Part shown: in pieces, positions 12,968-55,830 of the stretch | How positions within the stretch are numbered: position 1 is the stretch's first letter | How the letters are laid out: each line of letters opens with the position of its first letter | Origin: Candidatus Spongiisociaceae bacterium | GTDB lineage: Bacteria > Actinomycetota > Acidimicrobiia > Spongiisociales > Spongiisociaceae | DNA: 64,000 bases | Reading direction: 5' to 3' | NCBI GenBank assembly: GCA_965262915.1 | Contig: OZ253564.1 | Span: forward strand, 4,160,001-4,224,000 | Program-made: the position numbers and the translations under genes | Notes under the pieces: model-generated | Database searches by the model: none | Seen by the model: the letters and a program-made list of their open reading frames with translations, nothing else | What the model was told of the DNA's origin: nothing

Positions 12968-13148
12968 GGTGTATCCCCGTCTCTGCCATGGAACCTCTGA
13001 GGAGCAGAACCGTTGGGAACTGCTTGACGGGGGCAGGGGAATATCGTGGCCCGACCTTGACGAGGACATCGCAGTGAGAGACCTGCTCGACGGTATACCG
13101 TCGGGAGAGTCGGCAAGGTCGCTGGCTGCAGGCCCGCAAGCAGGGTAG
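12968..13148 (+). pseudogene. DUF2442-family C-terminal fragment
   Basis: YPRLCHGTSEEQNRWELLDGGRGISWPDLDEDIAVRDLLDGIPSGESARSL. Confidence 0.8.
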
Positions 13149-13262
13149 GCCCCTGACCCTGTACGACTTGGCCGCATACGAAGAGTCAGACGACTTCCGC
13201 AACAAAGCCGCTCTTCCGTAAGCCGCGTACGCGCAGGCTGCCTCGTCGTATTGGCGTGCTGC

Positions 13263-13324
13263 GCCCGTTGGTCGTCGCGGAACCGCTACTGTCGTTCCTG
13301 GTCAGGGGCGGTCTCGAAGACCCC
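13263..13324 (+). repeat. Degenerate copy E of the dispersed island repeat
   Basis: GTCGTC at 13271 and CCTGGTCAGGGGCGGTCTCGAAGACCCC keep the same register as the full copies. Confidence 0.7.
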
Positions 13325-13344
13325 ATGGGGGGTAGGCGCGGGGG

Positions 13345-13776
13345 TCAGGGACGGGCATACAGTTCGACTTTGGTGGCGTCCACCGACGCTTGGAAATACT
13401 TGTTGTCGATGAACTTGTAGGAGCCTATGTCGATCTGTTCGCGGCCTTCGGTTTCGGTGAGCCACCCGTCGAAAACGTCTCGGAGGGCGGCCCGGAGCGC
13501 ACGGTAGTTGACCGGATACGCCGACCCGGGACGGGTTGGGGGTCCGAACGGGCAGTGTTCGGAAGGTCCGTCGTAGGCCATGCCCGCTCCCGGCGCGAAC
13601 ACGACCATGAAATCCAAGTCTGATAGTCGGGGCTGATAGTCGGGGCTGACAGCCGACCCGTACAGCCACAGCCGGTCCACGTGGAACTGTTCGCACGCTG
13701 CCCGTATCTGCGGCAGCCGGTCGCGGACGAAACGGCGAAGACGCGGCGTGAACGGAACATCGACAGCGACAGCCAT
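13345..13776 (-). CDS. Minimal nucleotidyltransferase (MNT/MntA-like), no adjacent HEPN gene
   Basis: CEQFHVDRLWLYGSAVSPDY..SDLDFMV and IDNKYFQASVDATKVELY. Confidence 0.85.
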   Translation of the reverse strand: MAVAVDVPFTPRLRRFVRDRLPQIRAACEQFHVDRLWLYGSAVSPDYQPRLSDLDFMVVFAPGAGMAYDGPSEHCPFGPPTRPGSAYPVNYRALRAALRDVFDGWLTETEGREQIDIGSYKFIDNKYFQASVDATKVELYARP

Positions 13777-13912
13777 AACCCCGCCCATTCTACCGGACCG
13801 AACCGGACCGTCCCCGTGTTCGACACCACACCGGATACCGAGCTTCGAGAGGGGGGCTCTGCCCAGCAGTTGCTGTTGAGCCTGTGGCGGACGATAGCTA
13901 CTGCGGTCTGAT

Positions 13913-13996
13913 GAGGTGCCAGATTCCGGCTGAGGAGGTGACAGACTCGTGGGACCCCTACCATTACCCCTGGTCAGGGGTGGTCGCGAAGACCCC
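13913..13996 (+). repeat. Dispersed island repeat, copy B
   Basis: GAGGTG boxes at 13913 and 13935; GGTCGCGAAGACCCC at 13982 (47 bp after the last box); CACGAC tail. Confidence 0.8.
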
Positions 13997-14164
13997 ACGA
14001 CACGGCGGCCGTGACGAAATGCGCACCGCCCGTTTCGCCCGAGCAGCGCAGCAGCGTCTGGCCGGACAGTCCTTCGACCCCGACACGCTGTTCCAGCACG
14101 ACCCTGTCACGCTGCTCGATGCCTGAAATACACCGCGACGGAGCACTGGTGTTCCAACTCGTGG

Positions 14165-15385
14165 TGCACCGCCTGGGGTGGTGATCCGTTCCCGCAAGCC
14201 CCGCCCGTTGTGTGAGTCCTGTGGCGGCCCGGTGTGGTCCAAGGGTCACAGAACGGTTGTGTTGGTGGATTTACCGGCGTTCGGCGTCCGGTTCGGCTGC
14301 GGTGGCGGAAACGCCGTTGGACATGTCCGAACCCCGACTGTGAGATCAGGTCGTTCATCGAACAAGACCCCACGATTGGTCCCCAACGGGCGTTGTTGAC
14401 CTCCCGAGCGGCCCGGTGGGTGACCATCCAGGTGGGTGGGCGGGGCCGTTCGGTCGACGAGGTCGCCGCGGAGCTTGGTTGTGGGTGGCATACGGTGAAC
14501 AACGAGGTCGGCCGCTGGGGCGAAGCCCTGTTGGAAGCCGACACCGACCGGATAGGCGAGGTCCAAGCTGTGGGCATCGACAAGAAGCGTTGTTCTGGCG
14601 GAAAGGCCGGTGGCGCACCAAAGTCTGGTGCACCTCTGTCGTCGACGTGGGAGGCCACCAGCCGGTTCGACATAGTCGGTGGTAGAACGGCAGAAAGCGC
14701 CGCAGCCTGGTTCCGGGCGCAGCCCACCGAATGGTGTGAGGCTATCCGCTGGGCGGTGTCGGGTCATGTCCGGTTCGTATCGGAAGGCGTATGACAGGGT
14801 GCTGCCCCACGCCCCCGGGGTAGCGGACCCGTTCGGTGTCAGCCGCCTCGCCAACCAGCGTCTCGACGACCTACGACGAAGAGTCCAAAACGAAACCCTG
14901 GGACACAGAGGCCGCAAGGATGACCCGCTGTATCGGATACGCCGCCTCCTCACCGCCGCGCATGAGAGGATCAGCGACCGCGGTCAAACACGGCTGCGTG
15001 GCCTCCTCGATGCCGGTGACCCCCACGGGGAGGTACGCACAGCCTGGCACGCGACCGAAACGGTACGGGGCATCTACGGGATCGAAAGTCCCGCCCTTGC
15101 TCTCCGGTACACCGTCGGGCTCGCGGACGACCTCCAGGACGAATCCTGCCCACCCGAGATCAACAAGCTGGGTCGCACCATCGCCCGCTGGACCCCCCAG
15201 ATCACCAACTGGCACATCTCGAAGGTAACCAACAGACGCCACCGAAGCCCTCAACAACCTGATCAAACGGATCAAACGAGCAGCGTTCGGGTTACCCAAC
15301 TTCGCGAACTACCGAATCCGCGCCCTTCTCTACGCCGGGAAACCCAACTGGGACCTCCTCGCATCGGTCACTCCCCACTGAAATC
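14165..15385 (+). pseudogene. ISL3-family element (a): 5'-truncated, multiply frameshifted transposase; right IR split by IS110
   Basis: High similarity to 16842..18140 across several frames; IR half CCCCACTGAAATC ends at 15385, remainder GAAGAGCC at 18304-18311. Confidence 0.9.
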
Positions 15386-15401
15386 CACTCATAATTAGAA
15401 G

Positions 15402-15590
15402 GTTCCTGGGCTAGGGCGGGTCTGACCCAACTGAAATCTGGCCTTGTGCCTTTTCATCGATCTGTCGGCCCGTTCCCGGCCTGGGGCGTAACCCCCTGAC
15501 CCGGGGCGGATGTGACCTAATAGGAGCCTTCAACTTCTCCACCGTGAGTGGCCTGTCCAACCGCACACGGGTCCGGGGATCGGAAATGAT
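15402..15590 (+). ncRNA. Putative IS110 bridge RNA
   Basis: Non-coding left end with ACTGAAATC (15430, left target), TCATCGA (15454, revcomp right target), ATAGGAGC (15520, left donor), TGAGTGG (15545, revcomp right donor) in canonical order; ends approximate. Confidence 0.8.
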
Positions 15591-15616
15591 TCTATCCCCT
15601 AGAGGAGAAGAGCATC

Positions 15617-16855
15617 ATGGGAGAAGCAGACCAGATTATCTACGGTGGGGTTGACACCCATCGGGACGTCCACGTAGCAGCGGTGGTGGATGGCGTCGGG
15701 CGGGTACTGGGATCGGAGTCTTTCGCGGTGGAGGAATCCGGTTATCGGCGAATGGTCACCTGGTTCGAGTCGCGGGGACAGTTGGTTCGGGTTGGGGTGG
15801 AAGGAACGGGTAGTTACGGCGCCGGCCTGGCCCGTTACCTGACCGAGATGAACATCGAGGTGGTGGAGGTCAACCGCCCCAACCGCCAACTACGCCGCCA
15901 GAAGGGCGGCAAGACCGACAGCGTCGACGCCGAGGCGGCAGCTCGGGCAGCTGCCTCGGGCGAAGCAACCGCGGTTCCCAAGTCCGGTGTGGGCCCGGTC
16001 GAGTGCATACGGATGCTGTGGGTGGTGCGCCGCTCCGCGGTCAAGGCCCGCACCCAGGCCGCTAACCAGATACATGCGCTGGTCGTAACAGCTCCCGAGC
16101 CGCTAAAACACCAGCTAAAGGGCATGAATCTCAAAGCACGGGTCAAAACCTGTGCCCGGTTCCGACCCGGCACAGACCACACCACCACCGCGTATGCGAA
16201 GCGTGCCCTACAGCATTTGGCCCGCCGGTATCAGGCCCTCGACGTAGAGATCGCCCAACTCGAAGCCGAGATCCGGCGTCTCTGCGCCCAGGCCAACCCG
16301 GCCCTGCTGGCCACAGAAGGTGTCGGTCCTGACACAGCCGCCGCGTTGTTGGTCGCCGCCGGCGACAACCCCAAGCGAATGAAATCGGAACGGTCTTTCG
16401 CGGCGCTGTGCGGCGCCAGCCCCGTCCAGGCGTCATCAGGACGAACCCTTCGGCATCGTCTCAACCGGGGCGGCAACCGCCAAGCCAACAACGCGCTATG
16501 GCGGATCGCTACCACCCGGATGCGCACCGACGCCGCCACCAAAGCCTACGTGGCACGACGCAAGGCCGAGGGCAAGAAGAAAAAGGAGATCATCCGCTGC
16601 CTCAAGCGGCACATCGCCCGAGAAATCTACCGGCTCCTCACCAACCCGCACCCAACCCCGAACTGCGCCCGCCTACGCACCCGACGCCAACAACGCGGCA
16701 TCACCCTCACCCAGACCGCCCAAGCCGTCGGAACCCACCCCAATCGCATCTCAGCACTCGAACACGGCCGAGACCACAACCACCACCTCGCCACCCGATA
16801 CCAGAACTGGCTGCACACCCACCAAACCGGCTCATCGGATTTCAGTGGGGAGTGA
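15617..16855 (+). CDS. IS110 transposase (DEDD RuvC-like + Tnp) with C-terminal XRE HTH; last codons replaced by ISL3 insertion
   Basis: GGVDTH, GVEGTGSYG, GKTDSVDA, ASSGR.RHRLNRGGNRQAN; RBS GAGGAG; native end HQTAPSSI* at 18270-18287. Confidence 0.95.
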   Translation: MGEADQIIYGGVDTHRDVHVAAVVDGVGRVLGSESFAVEESGYRRMVTWFESRGQLVRVGVEGTGSYGAGLARYLTEMNIEVVEVNRPNRQLRRQKGGKTDSVDAEAAARAAASGEATAVPKSGVGPVECIRMLWVVRRSAVKARTQAANQIHALVVTAPEPLKHQLKGMNLKARVKTCARFRPGTDHTTTAYAKRALQHLARRYQALDVEIAQLEAEIRRLCAQANPALLATEGVGPDTAAALLVAAGDNPKRMKSERSFAALCGASPVQASSGRTLRHRLNRGGNRQANNALWRIATTRMRTDAATKAYVARRKAEGKKKKEIIRCLKRHIAREIYRLLTNPHPTPNCARLRTRRQQRGITLTQTAQAVGTHPNRISALEHGRDHNHHLATRYQNWLHTHQTGSSDFSGE

Positions 16856-18261
16856 CCGATGGGAGTAGGTCCCAGTTGGGTTTCCCCGCGTAGAGAAGGG
16901 CGCGGATTCGGTAGTTCGCGAAGTTGCGGAACCCGAACGCTGCTCGTTTGATCCGTTTGATGAGGTTGTTGAGGGCTTCGGTGGGTCCGTTGGTTACCTT
17001 CGAGATGTGCCAGTTGGTGATCTGGGGGGTCCAGCGGGCGATGGTACGACCCAGCTTGTTGATCTCGGGTGGGCAGGATTCGTGTTGGAGGTCGTCTGCG
17101 AGCTGGAGGGTGTATCGGAGAGCAAGGACCGGACTCTCGATCCCGTAGATGCCTCGTACCGTCTCTTTCGCGTGCCAGGCTGTGCGCACTTCCCCGTAGG
17201 GGTCACCAGCATCGAGGAGACCACGCAGCCGTATTTGACCCCGGTCGCTGATCCTCTCATGCGCAGCGGTTAGGAGCCGCCGTATCCGATACAGCGGGTC
17301 ATCCTTGCGGCCTCGATGCCCGAGGGTTTCGTTTTGGACTCTTCGTCGTACCTCGTCGAGACGCTGGTTGGCGAGGCGGATGACGTGGAACGGGTCCGCT
17401 ACCTGCAGCGCGTGCGGCAGCACCCTGTCATACGCCTTCCGATACGAACCGGACATGTCCAACACCGCCCAGCGGATAGCCTCACACCATTCGGTGGGTT
17501 GTGACCGGAACCAGGCTGCGGCGCTTTCTGCTGTTCTACCAGGGACTATGTCGATCAGCTGGTGGCCGCCAACGTCGACGACAGAGGTGCACCAGACTTT
17601 GGTACGCCAACGGCCCCGACGCCAGAACAACGTCTCGTCCACTCCCACAGCTTCGACGGTCCCGACCCGATCGGTGTCTGCTTCCAGCAGCGCTTCGCCC
17701 CAGCGGCCAACCTCTTTGTTCACCGTATGCCAATCACAACCAAGTTCTGCGGCGACCTCGTCGACCGAACGGCCCCGCCCACCCACCTGGATGGTCACCC
17801 ACCGGGCCGCTCGGGATGTCAACAACGCCCGTTGGGGACCAATCTTGGGGTCTTGTTCGATGAACGATCTGAGCGCACAGTCGGGGTTCGGACATGTCCA
17901 GCGCCGTTTCCGCCACCGCAGCCGCACAGGCCGGCCGAACGCCGGTAAATCCACCAACACAACCGTCCGATAGCCCTTCGACCACACCGACCCGCCACAG
18001 GACTCACACAACGGCCGGGGCTTGCGGGACCGGATCACCACCTCCAACGGTGCCTCCTCGCCCGGGTCGTTGATCCCTACCAGATCAACCTCACCTAGGC
18101 CTACCAACTTCTCGCACATGCGCGTAGGATCAGCTTCCACAGGGGTCCTCCTGCCTCGGATGTCATTACCAACACCCGATTATGGAGGACCCCTCCTCAC
18201 TTCTGGTGGATTCCAACTCCCCCTGGCAGATCCCCTACTCCCCACTCATTTCCGAAGAGCC
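16829..18261 (-). mobile_element. ISL3-family element (b), intact
   Basis: IRs GGCTCATCGGATTTCAGTGGGG / CCCCACTCATTTCCGAAGAGCC; 8-bp target duplication ACCAAACC at 16821-16828 and 18262-18269. Confidence 0.95.
16842..18140 (-). CDS. ISL3-family transposase
   Basis: Zn finger CESCG...WTCPNPDC, VGVDET, VLDMS, ADPFHV, TNGPTEALNNLIKRIKRAAFGFRNFANYRIRALL. Confidence 0.96.
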   Translation of the reverse strand: MEADPTRMCEKLVGLGEVDLVGINDPGEEAPLEVVIRSRKPRPLCESCGGSVWSKGYRTVVLVDLPAFGRPVRLRWRKRRWTCPNPDCALRSFIEQDPKIGPQRALLTSRAARWVTIQVGGRGRSVDEVAAELGCDWHTVNKEVGRWGEALLEADTDRVGTVEAVGVDETLFWRRGRWRTKVWCTSVVDVGGHQLIDIVPGRTAESAAAWFRSQPTEWCEAIRWAVLDMSGSYRKAYDRVLPHALQVADPFHVIRLANQRLDEVRRRVQNETLGHRGRKDDPLYRIRRLLTAAHERISDRGQIRLRGLLDAGDPYGEVRTAWHAKETVRGIYGIESPVLALRYTLQLADDLQHESCPPEINKLGRTIARWTPQITNWHISKVTNGPTEALNNLIKRIKRAAFGFRNFANYRIRALLYAGKPNWDLLPSVTPH

Positions 18262-18311
18262 ACCAAACCGCCCCATCATCGATTTGACAACCATAGGAGC
18301 ATCGAAGAGCC

Positions 18312-18400
18312 CCATAAGCCCCGTCCGTCGTGTGGGGCGTGTGGTGGGTTGGTGTGGTCCAAGGGTGAGCGGACGGTGGTGTTGGTGGATTTGCCGGGTA
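18312..18400 (+). pseudogene. Third ISL3 transposase fragment
   Basis: KPRPSCGACGGLVWSKGERTVVLVDLP. Confidence 0.8.
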
Positions 18401-18412
18401 CGGTGAGGACGA

Positions 18413-19036
18413 TTATGTGCGTCCATCGTATTCGTCGACGAGCCTAGTCAGGCGCTCCCGGATTCCTTTACCCGAGCGCTTGTCCGCGAGGAGGGAGTGA
18501 ATATCTCGGCAAACGCTGGACACCCAGTCTCGTTCGTGCCGGTAGGCGGCATTCGCGGAGAAGGTACTGTCACACAACGCCATCAGGTCGTCATAGTAAA
18601 CGATACCGGTGAACTCCGCGAGGTCGAGTATATCCTGGATGTCTTTACCGCGACCTGACAGCAGTTTCAATGCCAATAGTGTTTCAGGGTCCGCCGCCCG
18701 AACCAGTAGTGAACTGCCTTCGTAAACCGTACCGAACGACGTGCTAGGAAGATCGGCGTCGATTATCTGGCCAGCATCATCATTGATCCAGTTGTCGGCC
18801 ATCCCATGGCGTCGAGCAACGATACGGGATGCTTCCAGAACTTGTGGTGGGATTGGTCCCGCGACGACGTCCACATCTTGGGTGAGCCTTCCCCCAATAA
18901 TACCTCCGATCGCAGCGCCCCCAATCACATACAGAACATACATGTTCCCGGGTGGAGTTTCTGAACATAGTACTTCGTCGACTTCGGCAAGCAGGCCCAT
19001 CAATTCAGAGTGGGTGCGGTATGGAAGCACACTCAC
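18413..19036 (-). CDS. DUF6036-family nucleotidyltransferase (putative TA toxin)
   Basis: LYVIGGAAI, RLTQDVDV, NWINDDA, LLALKLLSGRGKDIQDI; GTG start overlaps upstream TGA. Confidence 0.85.
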   Translation of the reverse strand: MSVLPYRTHSELMGLLAEVDEVLCSETPPGNMYVLYVIGGAAIGGIIGGRLTQDVDVVAGPIPPQVLEASRIVARRHGMADNWINDDAGQIIDADLPSTSFGTVYEGSSLLVRAADPETLLALKLLSGRGKDIQDILDLAEFTGIVYYDDLMALCDSTFSANAAYRHERDWVSSVCRDIHSLLADKRSGKGIRERLTRLVDEYDGRT

Positions 19037-19536
19037 CGGATTATGAACTCGGTGTAGTTCTCCTTCGTTACCCGGCTGCGCACGGAGGCGATGAACTGAT
19101 AGTCGAACCACACATTATGGTATTCGCAAGCGGGGGGAGCGTTCACCAAGGTATGTTCCCAGATGAATCCCCGCATAGTACAACTCCGATCCCAGGCCAA
19201 CGCTACGGCCGATTTATGGCCCCACACCCAGTCTGTAATCTGGACCCCGTCACGATCACAAAGAGCATGAACCACGGCAGCGATCCGGCAAAGATCCTCT
19301 GGGTCTGGACCCACAGGAGCGTCTTTGATCATGATCTCCCGGTCCTGCGGAAAGGAGTCCCACTGCTTGATGAGAAGGGAGAGAGGTACGTGAGGTCTGG
19401 ATTCGCCGGGTTTCATGAGGGAAGGGAGGTCTGCCGCCCTTACCCGTCGGTAAGGCGCTGCCTTCTCATAGGATGGTGGTTGATTAACGATCCTCACGGG
19501 CACGCTCGTGACCCCCGACACGCTCTTTAGGCGCAT
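19033..19536 (-). CDS. Hypothetical protein, putative antitoxin partner of the DUF6036 NTase
   Basis: Translationally coupled to the NTase gene; decayed paralog at 12612-12965. Confidence 0.75.
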   Translation of the reverse strand: MRLKSVSGVTSVPVRIVNQPPSYEKAAPYRRVRAADLPSLMKPGESRPHVPLSLLIKQWDSFPQDREIMIKDAPVGPDPEDLCRIAAVVHALCDRDGVQITDWVWGHKSAVALAWDRSCTMRGFIWEHTLVNAPPACEYHNVWFDYQFIASVRSRVTKENYTEFIIR

Positions 19537-53778: not shown

Positions 53779-55830
53779 TCACCCTGCGTAAACGGCGGGG
53801 TCGCGGCTTACCACGATCTCGCCCGAGACGATCTTCTCCTTGAACCCGTCGAGCTGAGCCGCTATATCGCCCACGTGCCCGCCGGTGGTCGAATACCCGA
53901 CCCCATCCACCGACAGGTCGAACCTCTGCTCACCCGCGGCGAACGTACCCGCCTGCACCGCCCGGATAGTGTCGAACACCGCTACGTCCACCCGCTTCAG
54001 CATCGACGTCAGAATGTATGGCTGGAAGTCCTCACCGGCCGTCAGGTACTGATCCGAATCCACCCCGATCGCCCACACATGGGTGTTGTTCGCCTCCGAG
54101 TAATCCTTGGCGGCCTGGAACAGCCCCCCACCCGTACCGCCCGCCGCGTGATAGACCACATCGGCGCCCTGCTCGAACATCGACTGGGCAATCACCCGCC
54201 CAGCCGCCGGATCGTTGAAACCACTGAAATCAGGCGGCTCCGTCACGTACTGGGAGATCACCTGGATGGACGGATCCACCGCCTGCACACCCGCCAGGAA
54301 CCCGGCCTCGAAAGCATGGATCAAAGGAATGTTAACCCCACCTATGTAGCCGACGATACCGCTCTCGGTCTTCAACGCAGCGGCCGCCCCGACCAAGAAC
54401 GAGCCCTGCTCCTCCGAGAACAACAACCCGGCCACATTCGGAGCGTCCACAGACGAGTCCACGATCGCGAAGCTGGTCTCGGGAAACTCTGCGGCCACAG
54501 CGGCCATCGGCTCAGCGAACAGGAACCCGACCCCGATCACCAGATCGGCTCCCTCCGACGCCTGAAGCGCCAGCAGCTCCTCACGGTTGGTCCCGTCCTC
54601 GTTGGCTGAAGCCTCCGAGAAGGTGACACCCAGCTCGGTGGAGGCCCGATCGAGGCCCGCCGCCGCCGCATCGTTGAACGACTGGTCCCCCCGACCGCCG
54701 ATGTCATAAACCAAACCGATCCTGATCGAAGGCAGAACAACCTCTAGTTCGGCGGGGTCGCGGCTTACCACGATCTCGCCCGAGACGATCTTCTCCTTGA
54801 ACCCGTCGAGCTGAGCCGCTATATCGCCCACGTGCCCGCCGGTGGTCGAATACCCGACCCCATCCACCGACAGGTCGAACCTCTGCTCACCCGCGGCGAA
54901 CGTACCCGCCTGCACCGCCCGGATAGTGTCGAACACCGCTACGTCCACCCGCTTCAGCATCGACGTCAGAATGTATGGCTGGAAGTCCTCACCGGCCGTC
55001 AGGTACTGATCCGAATCCACCCCGATCGCCCACACATGGGTGTTGTTCGCCTCCGAGTAATCCTTGGCGGCCTGGAACAGCCCCCCACCCGTACCGCCCG
55101 CCGCGTGATAGACCACATCGGCGCCCTGCTCGAACATCGACTGGGCAATCACCCGCCCAGCCGCCGGATCGTTGAAACCACTGAAATCAGGCGGCTCCGT
55201 CACGTACTGGGAGATCACCTGGATGGACGGATCCACCGCCTGCACACCCGCCAGGAACCCGGCCTCGAAAGCATGGATCAAAGGAATGTTAACCCCACCT
55301 ATGTAGCCGACGATACCGCTCTCGGTCTTCAACGCAGCGGCCGCCCCGACCAAGAACGAGCCCTGCTCCTCCGAGAACAACAACCCGGCCACATTCGGAG
55401 CGTCCACAGACGAGTCCACGATCGCGAAGCTGGTCTCGGGAAACTCTGCGGCCACAGCGGCCATCGGCTCAGCGAACAGGAACCCGACCCCGATCACCAG
55501 ATCGGCTCCCTCCGACGCCTGAAGCGCCAGCAGCTCCTCACGGTTGGTCCCGTCCTCGTTGGCTGAAGCCTCCGAGAAGGTGACACCCAGCTCGGTGGAG
55601 GCCCGATCGAGGCCCGCCGCCGCCGCATCGTTGAACGACTGGTCCCCCCGACCGCCGATGTCATAAACCAAACCGATCCTGATCGGCTCACCTGCCGGGG
55701 CCTGGGTGGCTGAGGGGGTCTCGGAGGTTGCCTGGGTTGTGGTCGTCCCCGGCTCCTCATCACCGCCGCAAGCCGCTGCCAGCAACGCGAACGCCGCCAG
55801 CGCGATGAACAACCTCGTCTTTGTGTACAT
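53779..55830 (-). CDS. BMP-family nucleoside-binding lipoprotein with two tandem domains
   Basis: Lipobox AAAC; GGRGDQSFN, IGVDSDQ, SMLKRVD each twice. Confidence 0.92.
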   Translation of the reverse strand: MYTKTRLFIALAAFALLAAACGGDEEPGTTTTQATSETPSATQAPAGEPIRIGLVYDIGGRGDQSFNDAAAAGLDRASTELGVTFSEASANEDGTNREELLALQASEGADLVIGVGFLFAEPMAAVAAEFPETSFAIVDSSVDAPNVAGLLFSEEQGSFLVGAAAALKTESGIVGYIGGVNIPLIHAFEAGFLAGVQAVDPSIQVISQYVTEPPDFSGFNDPAAGRVIAQSMFEQGADVVYHAAGGTGGGLFQAAKDYSEANNTHVWAIGVDSDQYLTAGEDFQPYILTSMLKRVDVAVFDTIRAVQAGTFAAGEQRFDLSVDGVGYSTTGGHVGDIAAQLDGFKEKIVSGEIVVSRDPAELEVVLPSIRIGLVYDIGGRGDQSFNDAAAAGLDRASTELGVTFSEASANEDGTNREELLALQASEGADLVIGVGFLFAEPMAAVAAEFPETSFAIVDSSVDAPNVAGLLFSEEQGSFLVGAAAALKTESGIVGYIGGVNIPLIHAFEAGFLAGVQAVDPSIQVISQYVTEPPDFSGFNDPAAGRVIAQSMFEQGADVVYHAAGGTGGGLFQAAKDYSEANNTHVWAIGVDSDQYLTAGEDFQPYILTSMLKRVDVAVFDTIRAVQAGTFAAGEQRFDLSVDGVGYSTTGGHVGDIAAQLDGFKEKIVSGEIVVSRDPAVYAG
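53793..55685. repeat. 936-bp direct repeat x2 (53793-54728 and 54750-55685), 21-bp unique linker
   Basis: Offset 957 bp; no differences seen by eye; shadow ORFs at 53875 and 54832 translate identically. Confidence 0.93.

Follow-up and report, generated by a model that had tools for sequence, protein, structure and literature searches.

A putative RNA-guided IS110-family element recurring in the right inverted repeat of ISL3 elements of a Candidatus Spongiisociaceae bacterium

The genome of a Candidatus Spongiisociaceae bacterium (Acidimicrobiia; assembly GCA_965262915.1, contig OZ253564.1) carries an insertion sequence (IS) of the IS110 family that splits the right terminal inverted repeat (IR) of a resident ISL3-family element. 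The locus was analysed in a window of 64,000 nucleotides (genome positions 4160001-4224000), and all feature coordinates are counted within this window; positions elsewhere are given as genome positions. In our reading, to which we assign a probability of roughly 0.9, the element belongs to the IS110 group and chooses its insertion site via a bridge RNA encoded in its left end. An RNA-guided IS110 element aimed at the ISL3 IR had been proposed from the letters of the window (the original prediction), and the proposal is supported here by the copies of the element in the genome, by covariation of guides with targets and by the placement of the guides in predicted loops; the proposed core dinucleotide had to be revised.

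A BLAST search of the element against the 5.05-Mb genome yielded nine full-length copies at 99.5-100% identity (family A). The listing of copy flanks (31 rows of at least 1000 nt) comprises, in addition, eight copies of about 81% identity (family B, to which an aberrant copy, Bx, is counted) and further families C to I at 72-81%. Sixteen of the 17 A/B copies with these guides, i.e. nine of family A and seven of family B, lie at the identical position of an ISL3 right IR. The left junction reads CTGAAATCC/ACTCATA in 15 of these 16 copies and CTGAGATCC in the other, and the right junction reads GCATC/GATGAGCC in 11 copies and GCATC/GAAGAGCC in five. Junctions this uniform are also what one ancestral junction would leave behind, if ISL3 and its inserted IS110 had spread as one composite through the ISL3 transposase or through homologous recombination between ISL3 copies; we consider such a history extremely improbable, since the family A copies are 99.0-100% alike whereas the last 700 nt of their host ISL3 elements are 82.9-98.4% alike (median 89.5%), homologous exchange would need more than the 8 bp of ISL3 beyond the IS110, one position is shared by two diverged IS110 families (81%), and other families strike other elements with matching guides. 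Because the inserts are near-identical while the host ISL3 copies have diverged, separate insertions are indicated and not the copying of a single composite; judged from these sequences, the 16 A/B insertions are independent events in ISL3 copies that had already diverged.

For guide-flank matching, the left ends of 20 copies were aligned and one representative per family was used (nine families, eight specificities). Two blocks of the left end vary among the families while the scaffold around them is fixed: 9-10 nt that follow GGGTCTGACyC, and 5 nt that precede GATCTGTCG. In 9/9 families, 13-14 of 14 bases agree when the first block is compared with the left flank and the second block, as its reverse complement, with the right flank; the cross-family mean is 6.4 of 14, including two A-B cells of 14/14 (A and B share one target). 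Constant among the families are ATAGGAGC, TGAGTG(G/T) and the element ends ACTCATA...ATAGGAGCATC. In the bridge RNA of IS621, the left target guide (LTG) is in the sense of the left target and the right target guide (RTG) is complementary to the right target, and the left and right donor guides (LDG, RDG) relate likewise to the donor (PMC11208160). Variable target guides combined with a constant donor side are the pattern expected of an IS621-type bridge RNA, and the guide/target covariation on which the original prediction turned was found in every family examined.

All four guide motifs, as well as the promoter boxes TTGACA and CATAAT, lie in the window where they had been predicted (Table 1). 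The LTG of the window copy, ACTGAAATC, recurs at 15377 in the left flank; this 9-mer is present five times in the window versus 0.18 times expected from shuffles, two of the five matches (54223 and 55180) being chance occurrences within a duplicated ordinary gene, and the combined LTG...RTG block is present once versus 0.00 times expected. The ordinary coding region concerned contains a tandem duplication of about 957 bp (54150-54330, again at 55107-55290), which includes the chance ACTGAAATC.

The recombinase gene product is recognized by the Pfam models DEDD_Tnp_IS110 (PF01548, 1.2e-23) and Transposase_20 (PF02371, 1.7e-19), and its best match in the PDB is the IS621 structure 8wt6 (E 9.5e-12). 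Residues D13, E62, D101 and D104 align to D11, E60, D102 and D105 of IS621, and S274 (Ser274) aligns with the catalytic serine. Furthermore, a C-terminal helix-turn-helix (HTH) of the XRE type is predicted at residues ~350-409 (window 16664-16855; HTH_31, 3.6e-06; HTH_3, 1.7e-05); families A-I and a relative of 49% identity (L021) share this tail, which is absent from the 369-aa relatives (L027, L031) and from IS621. Such an additional domain, together with the fact that the RNA was not observed, would suit a protein that picks the site by itself, e.g. by reading the ISL3 IR with its HTH, the left-end matches then being by-products. This explanation appears very improbable to us: the HTH tail is conserved across families with unrelated targets, the sole blocks that track the targets are the two guide blocks of the left end, and the combined guide block is not expected by chance.

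The core dinucleotide can be read from five families for which uninterrupted targets are present in the genome, i.e. GCGAAA-AC-GTGGGTT for family H (three copies), CCTCGTA-AC-ATGACCCC for G (two copies), CCGGGAAA-CC-CGGGGCGG for I (four copies), GGTGAAA-TC-CTTGGAA for D (four copies) and TAGAC-AC-CCCAGG for F (four copies). Comparison of occupied with empty sites shows a single shared base, C, between the junctions; the base preceding this C is the target's own on the left junction and always T, as in the donor, on the right. For IS621, a top-strand cut 3' of a two-base core is described, of which the first base is loosely and the second base strictly conserved (PMC11208158). A donor GGAGCA-TC-ACTCATA, a target core xC and top-strand exchange would give exactly the junctions observed. 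This model requires no shortened IR in families A and B, and the native ISL3 IR with its 'extra C', CTGAAAT-CC-GATGA, is probably their true target.

The original prediction had assigned a TC core to both partners, with an element start at CACTCATA and a target ACTGAAA-TC-GATGA that is one C shorter than the native IR. A number of features would suit this version: the LTG ACTGAAATC ends on TC directly before a conserved TGG, much as the LTG in families C, D, F, G and H ends on the core of the respective family; a single-C IR, ACTGAAATCGATGAGCC, exists at genome position 306086 (minus strand); the RDG of families A/B and I (TGAGTGG) would pair with C-CACTCA; and the shorter target would remove an oddity in the LTG register (see below). 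We nevertheless hold it to be unlikely, as it does not agree with the xC core at the empty sites of the five families. All 18 of the 18 unoccupied IRs that match the LTG have CC (12 with GATGAGC and six with GAAGAGC), the occupied ISL3 copies span many sublineages that are 83% to 98% alike, and one occupied ISL3 belongs to a group of 100% identity whose ten other members carry CC; a TC core would thus need 16 independent prior one-base deletions. Families E and I likewise have 'one C too many' in comparison with uninterrupted copies and would need further deletions, and families H and G are unambiguous, with a target core AC against the donor's TC at the first base.

With the xC core, the asymmetry of the junctions in all 16 A/B copies and in the other families would agree both with the top strand deciding integration and with the copy-and-paste of a single strand that a 2026 preprint puts forward as a model (10.64898/2026.08.31.748434). 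The core-facing bases of the RTG are always GA, which matches the donor TC, and those of the RDG are GG or GT; the RDG bases agree with a CC or AC target core (families A/B, I, C, G and H) and mismatch the target core TC of D and E. These matches of RTG to donor and of RDG to target resemble the post-exchange 'handshake' pairing that, according to PMC11208158 and PMC13626964, favours insertion in IS621, and they may extend the handshake to the first core base.

The occupancy of the ISL3 right IRs is high, i.e. 16 of the 34 IRs that match the LTG are occupied (47%). The unoccupied matching IRs are ACTGAAATCCGATGAGC (GATGAGC, 12) and ...CCGAAGAGC (GAAGAGC, six), and the catalogue is completed by the variant ACTGAAACGCGATGAGC (eight, none occupied), the single-C IR (one) and other single variants (two). 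Occupancy is not reduced by one mismatched base in the right arm (GAAGA for GATGA; 5/11 versus 11/23). Two side observations on these repeats were made. The IR variant ACTGAAACGCGATGAGCC (ACGC), with two changes beside the core, is occupied in 0/8 cases versus 16/34 for the matching IRs and could be an escape variant. The lone right IR with one C fewer at genome position 306086 is an exact match to the guides in the earlier register. A target still unused, a simple deletion or the scar left by an excision would all be conceivable, and under the xC core model an excision would lose no C.

In the mechanism that we propose, the element would circularize, and the circle junction would couple the -35 box of the right end to the -10 box of the left end and so drive the bridge RNA. 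The LTG (ACUGAAAUC) and the RTG (UCAUC-GA) in the target loop would pair with both strands of a resident ISL3 right IR, about 8-10 bp from its tip, and the LDG (AUAGGAGC) and RDG (UGAGUGG) in the second loop would pair with the element's own joined ends. The DEDD/Ser recombinase would then swap strands beside the two-base core (xC in the target, TC in the donor), with the top strand probably cut 3' of the core as in IS621, so that the first core base of the target would be retained at the left junction (CC here), and the TC of the donor at the right junction. From its position, each insertion parts the tip of the IR from the rest of the ISL3 element and probably immobilizes that copy; the element may hence disable ISL3 ends, and it would be a candidate for a reprogrammable tool.

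The left non-coding end comprises 230 nt (15387-15616), and the stop codon in intact copies lies within the last ~40 nt of the element. The minimum-energy fold of positions 15396-15600 alone was uninformative (z = -1.54; 14 of 200 shuffles fold as well), and alignment-based folds were therefore used. RNAalifold with nine left ends places both target guides in one internal loop, with a 13-bp closing stem and a 3-bp hairpin inside; in single folds, all 13 sequences (four of them from other genomes) form the stem of the target loop. In the alignment of the 13 sequences, 96.3% of the cells are paired versus 38-50% with slid partners, and three pairs show compensatory changes; the support from covariation is modest, because the scaffold varies little. 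The outer stem of the donor loop (GAC with GTC, helix 3) is 100% paired. In the RNAalifold fold of the whole left end, the RDG pairs with the first bases of the element; this reflects the complementarity of the RDG to the donor and is no RNA helix, as the transcript should start after the -10 box. The proposed arrangement of the guides in two internal loops is thus supported for the target loop and for the outer stem of the donor loop, and weakly for the inner hairpin of the donor loop. Both boxes of the proposed junction promoter are present. The proposed spacer of 18 nt applies with the earlier boundary; the other families favour a start at ACTCATA (15387), from which the spacer on joining would be 17 nt.

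Several observations speak against the bridge-RNA reading. The inner hairpin of the donor loop is poorly conserved and shifts its position among the families in single folds, and RNAalifold on sub-alignments gave no clean donor loop. The register of the LTG differs by one base between the families, ending on the first core base in A/B, E and I and on the second in C, D, F, G and H; the U that follows the LTG in A/B, E and I could wobble-pair. An Rfam scan of positions 13000-19500 (E up to 1) returned only two weak, irrelevant hits (sR10, radC) and no match to a bridge RNA family. The circle junction (right end joined to left end) was searched for in the assembly and not found. Read contigs (Logan) of three DNA runs and one RNA run were mapped over positions 15200-18420: there were no circle or empty-site joints in the contigs of the three DNA runs, which drop rare forms, and the left end was uncovered by the contigs of the RNA run, which cannot show rare forms or RNA ends; the RNA run gave a single contig of 152 nt within the recombinase gene (16375-16526, depth 2.4). 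The activity of the window copy is uncertain in view of its interruption by a second ISL3 element, ISL3(b), although with ends and guides intact it might, speculatively, still move as a 2.9-kb unit. Finally, copy Bx (genome position 3665109, minus strand; L003, flanks L047/L048) has a B-type body and the ISL3 guides and lies outside an ISL3 IR, with other elements on either side. Its site, AAAGAAC-CC-ACCGC, fits the guides of family C (AAAGAAC-AC-AACGC) at 12 of 14 bases, and it adjoins a DDE_Tnp_1/DUF772 transposase, as the C copies do. In the IS621 synapse, target loop and donor loop are provided by two different RNA molecules (PMC11208158). Since, furthermore, the donor side is common to all families, guidance in trans by a family C RNA would be a reasonable explanation for Bx.

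The nested order of the locus, as established from sequence, open reading frames (ORFs) and Pfam over positions 14400-19400, is decayed ISL3(a), then the IS110 element, then intact ISL3(b); the coordinates are summarized in Table 1. The splitting of the right IR of ISL3(a) by the IS110 had been predicted and was confirmed, and the nesting of ISL3(b) inside the IS110 had been omitted. The right IR of ISL3(a) is severed after ...CCCCACTGAAATCC; the IS110 starts with ACTCATAAT and finishes with ...TTGACAACCATAGGAGCATC, and the junctions of the window copy read CCCCACTGAAATC(C)/ACTCATAAT on the left and ATAGGAGCATC/GAAGAGCC on the right. Intact family A copies comprise 1475-1477 bp. In the window copy, ISL3(b) is nested near the stop codon of the recombinase, by which the right end is displaced by 1.4 kb; recombinase residues 1-404 are identical to the intact copy and the last five are substituted by residues derived from ISL3(b). 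The joint 16818->18260, the sole one with good support in the read contigs, skips ISL3(b) and is explained by the eight other family A copies.

ISL3(b) was assigned to its family by a transposase with zinc ribbon and HTH (DDE_Tnp_ISL3, PF01610, 1.1e-57; in addition PF14690 and PF13542), terminal IRs (GGCTCATCGGATTTCAGTGGGG and GGCTCTTCGGAAATGAGTGGGG; the IR carried on the minus strand is ACTGAAATCCGATGAGCC) and an 8-bp duplication, ACCAAACC, at 16821-16828 and 18262-18269; a target duplication of 8 bp is typical of the ISL3 family. Ten further copies of 100% identity were found in the genome by BLAST, which indicates that the ISL3(b) lineage was recently active. ISL3 and IS110 thus hit each other at this locus, as ISL3(b) sits in an IS110 that itself sits in an ISL3 IR.

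Table 1. Features of the nested locus, with coordinates counted within the window
Feature	Coordinates	Strand	Basis and remarks
ISL3(a), decayed	14166..15386	+	BLAST against ISL3(b) covers 11-1227 at 90.3%
ISL3(a) transposase, broken into at least two frames	14234-14794, 14679-15398	+	Pfam DDE_Tnp_ISL3 and HTH_Tnp_ISL3 on separate ORFs
Left half of target (left target plus target core CC), in ISL3(a) IR	15377..15386	+	Sequence, BLAST
IS110-family element, family A	15387..18303	+	BLAST, copy flanks; 2917 bp since ISL3(b) is nested inside
-10 box CATAAT	15390..15395	+	Part of a promoter that the circle junction alone would complete; analogy with IS621 (PMC11208158)
Target-binding loop, predicted	15413..15476	+	Outer stem 15413-15426 with 15464-15476; inner hairpin GGC...GCC
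LTG ACTGAAATC	15430..15438	+	Motif search, left-end alignment, covariation
RTG TCATC plus GA	15454..15460	+	GA pairs with the TC core; alignment, covariation
Donor-binding loop, predicted	15506..15564	+	Outer stem GCGG..GAC with GTC..CCGC; inner hairpin less defined
LDG ATAGGAGC	15520..15527	+	Identical to right-end bases 18293-18300
RDG TGAGTGG	15545..15551	+	Reverse complement of (C)CACTCA at the left end
Recombinase ORF	15617..16855	+	Pfam; 412 aa here, 409 aa in intact copies
ISL3(b), intact	16829..18261	-	Pfam, BLAST; 432-aa transposase at 16842-18140
-35 box TTGACA, right end	18284..18289	+	Sequence
Left donor ATAGGAGCA plus donor core TC	18293..18303	+	Conserved across all families
Right half of target (right target), outer tip GAAGAGCC of ISL3(a) IR	18304..18311	+	Sequence

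The other families were assigned to their surroundings by the copy number of the flanks and by Pfam of the flanking ORFs. Families H and D have entered a second ISL3-family element, 12 and ~34 nt inward of its end, G adjoins another ISL3-type transposase, E adjoins an IS21 pair (rve and IstB) and C an IS1182-like transposase. Family F sits at the end of an element X, which itself belongs to the IS110 family, comprises 1484 bp and has a CT(A) core and a transposase on the opposite strand. Element X itself interrupts the donor-guide sequence ATAG/GAGC of two H copies and the F copy (genome positions 3638411 (L050), 4422068 and 287119 (L007)) and has, in addition, entered the right end of a further copy (genome position 291618). 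Two family H copies lie inverted about 1.3 kb apart (genome positions 541943, plus strand, and 546193, minus strand) and may be a composite or a substrate for inversion.

As a tentative extension, which we consider possible and somewhat less probable than its alternatives taken together, these copies might form a guild of at least nine IS110 families that share one donor, one donor loop and one recombinase type, carry eight target loops and are, in all cases examined, aimed at other ISs; with guides acting in trans, this would amount to an RNA-programmed parasitism of IS on IS that curbs ISL3 and others. The candidate targets of the guild, as found beside the insertion sites, are three ISL3-type elements, an IS21 element, an IS1182-like element and the CT-core IS110 element X. 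If the guild exists, it would be a natural reprogramming series, and the fixed asymmetry at the first core base would be a natural footprint of an integration decision taken by the top strand only.

The closest public record is a second genome (L011), an Acidimicrobiia metagenome-assembled genome (MAG) that contains the same element at the same IR position with 100% protein identity; the other close public record, at 82%, is a MAG of Candidatus Spongiisociaceae. Of 201 sampled genomes of the order, 59 contain homologues (E 1e-40 or better), at least half of the element's sampled words were found in 17 sequencing runs from eight studies, and a related-locus search of genome contigs returned two loci. 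For the guide-flank test outside this genome, seven of 32 loci (L011-L042) fit the strict target-loop pattern, one of them (L013) being a copy from the genome itself, and the other 25, mostly relatives of ~50% identity, fell outside the test. A rough agreement of guides with flanks (7-9 of 9 and 4-5 of 5 bases) is seen in five relatives from other genomes.

Bridge RNA recombinases are under development as genome-writing tools, and the knowledge on them is derived mostly from IS621 and a few relatives. The families described here represent a natural reprogramming series, i.e. eight target specificities on a common scaffold and donor, with the empty sites kept for five, which yields design rules without experiment on the loop positions that may vary. 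For example, the first core bases of donor and target need not match, and a mismatch of the right arm (GAAGA for GATGA) is tolerated while IRs with the two core-adjacent changes (ACGC) are never hit. For the biology of mobile elements, the series illustrates RNA-guided elements living on the ends of other ISs at large scale in a sponge-associated actinobacterium.

The element agrees with the IS110 group at the sequence level in its DEDD domain, its Tnp domain with the serine, the order of its guides and its covarying target guides; terminal IRs are absent, the junctions share one base plus one variable base, and the left end is the longer one. In common with IS621 of E. coli, it has a DEDD RuvC-like domain and a Tnp domain with a catalytic serine, a long left and a short right end with the -35 box on the right and the -10 box on the left, and a two-base core with a strict second and a looser first base, with junctions that fit a top-strand cut 3' of the core. 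The guide order LTG, RTG, LDG, RDG in two internal loops is likewise shared, as far as IS621 is described in PMC11208160 and PMC11208158. In contrast to IS621, to which the protein is distantly related (E 9.5e-12), the core is xC/TC and not CT, about 60 extra C-terminal residues form the HTH, the target is an ISL3 IR and not a repetitive extragenic palindromic (REP) sequence, and the core bases of the RTG match the donor core and those of the RDG the target core, except in families D and E.

Targeting of another element's IR has parallels. The elements IS4321 and IS5075 (IS1111 group) reportedly target the 38-bp IRs of Tn21-family transposons, and similar to the element described here they are RNA-guided DEDD elements at a fixed position in a transposon IR. 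IS1383 is said to integrate into the IRs of IS1384 and would likewise be an IS110-family element whose target is the IR of another IS. Its host is a Pseudomonas plasmid and its target belongs to the IS5 family, whereas the target here is ISL3; the assignment of IS1384 to the IS5 family and of IS1383 to the IS110 family follows a table in PMC5141477. The IS1111 group is characterized by subterminal inverted repeats of 7-17 bp and a guide RNA in a long right end (PMC11208160, PMC11187229). The guide RNA there lies downstream of the gene, whereas here it is predicted upstream; the element has a short right end and shows neither the subterminal repeats nor the right-end guide RNA of the IS1111 group.

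A literature search, which did not cover supplements and many journals, returned no IS110 element that targets an ISL3 IR and none described from Acidimicrobiia; for the former, entries may already exist in the supplementary tables of Durrant et al. 2024 or among the targets that Siddiquee et al. 2024 list on GitHub. The mechanism and the targeting of IRs by the family are already known, and what this genome adds to the known systems is the reprogramming series and the IS-on-IS network.

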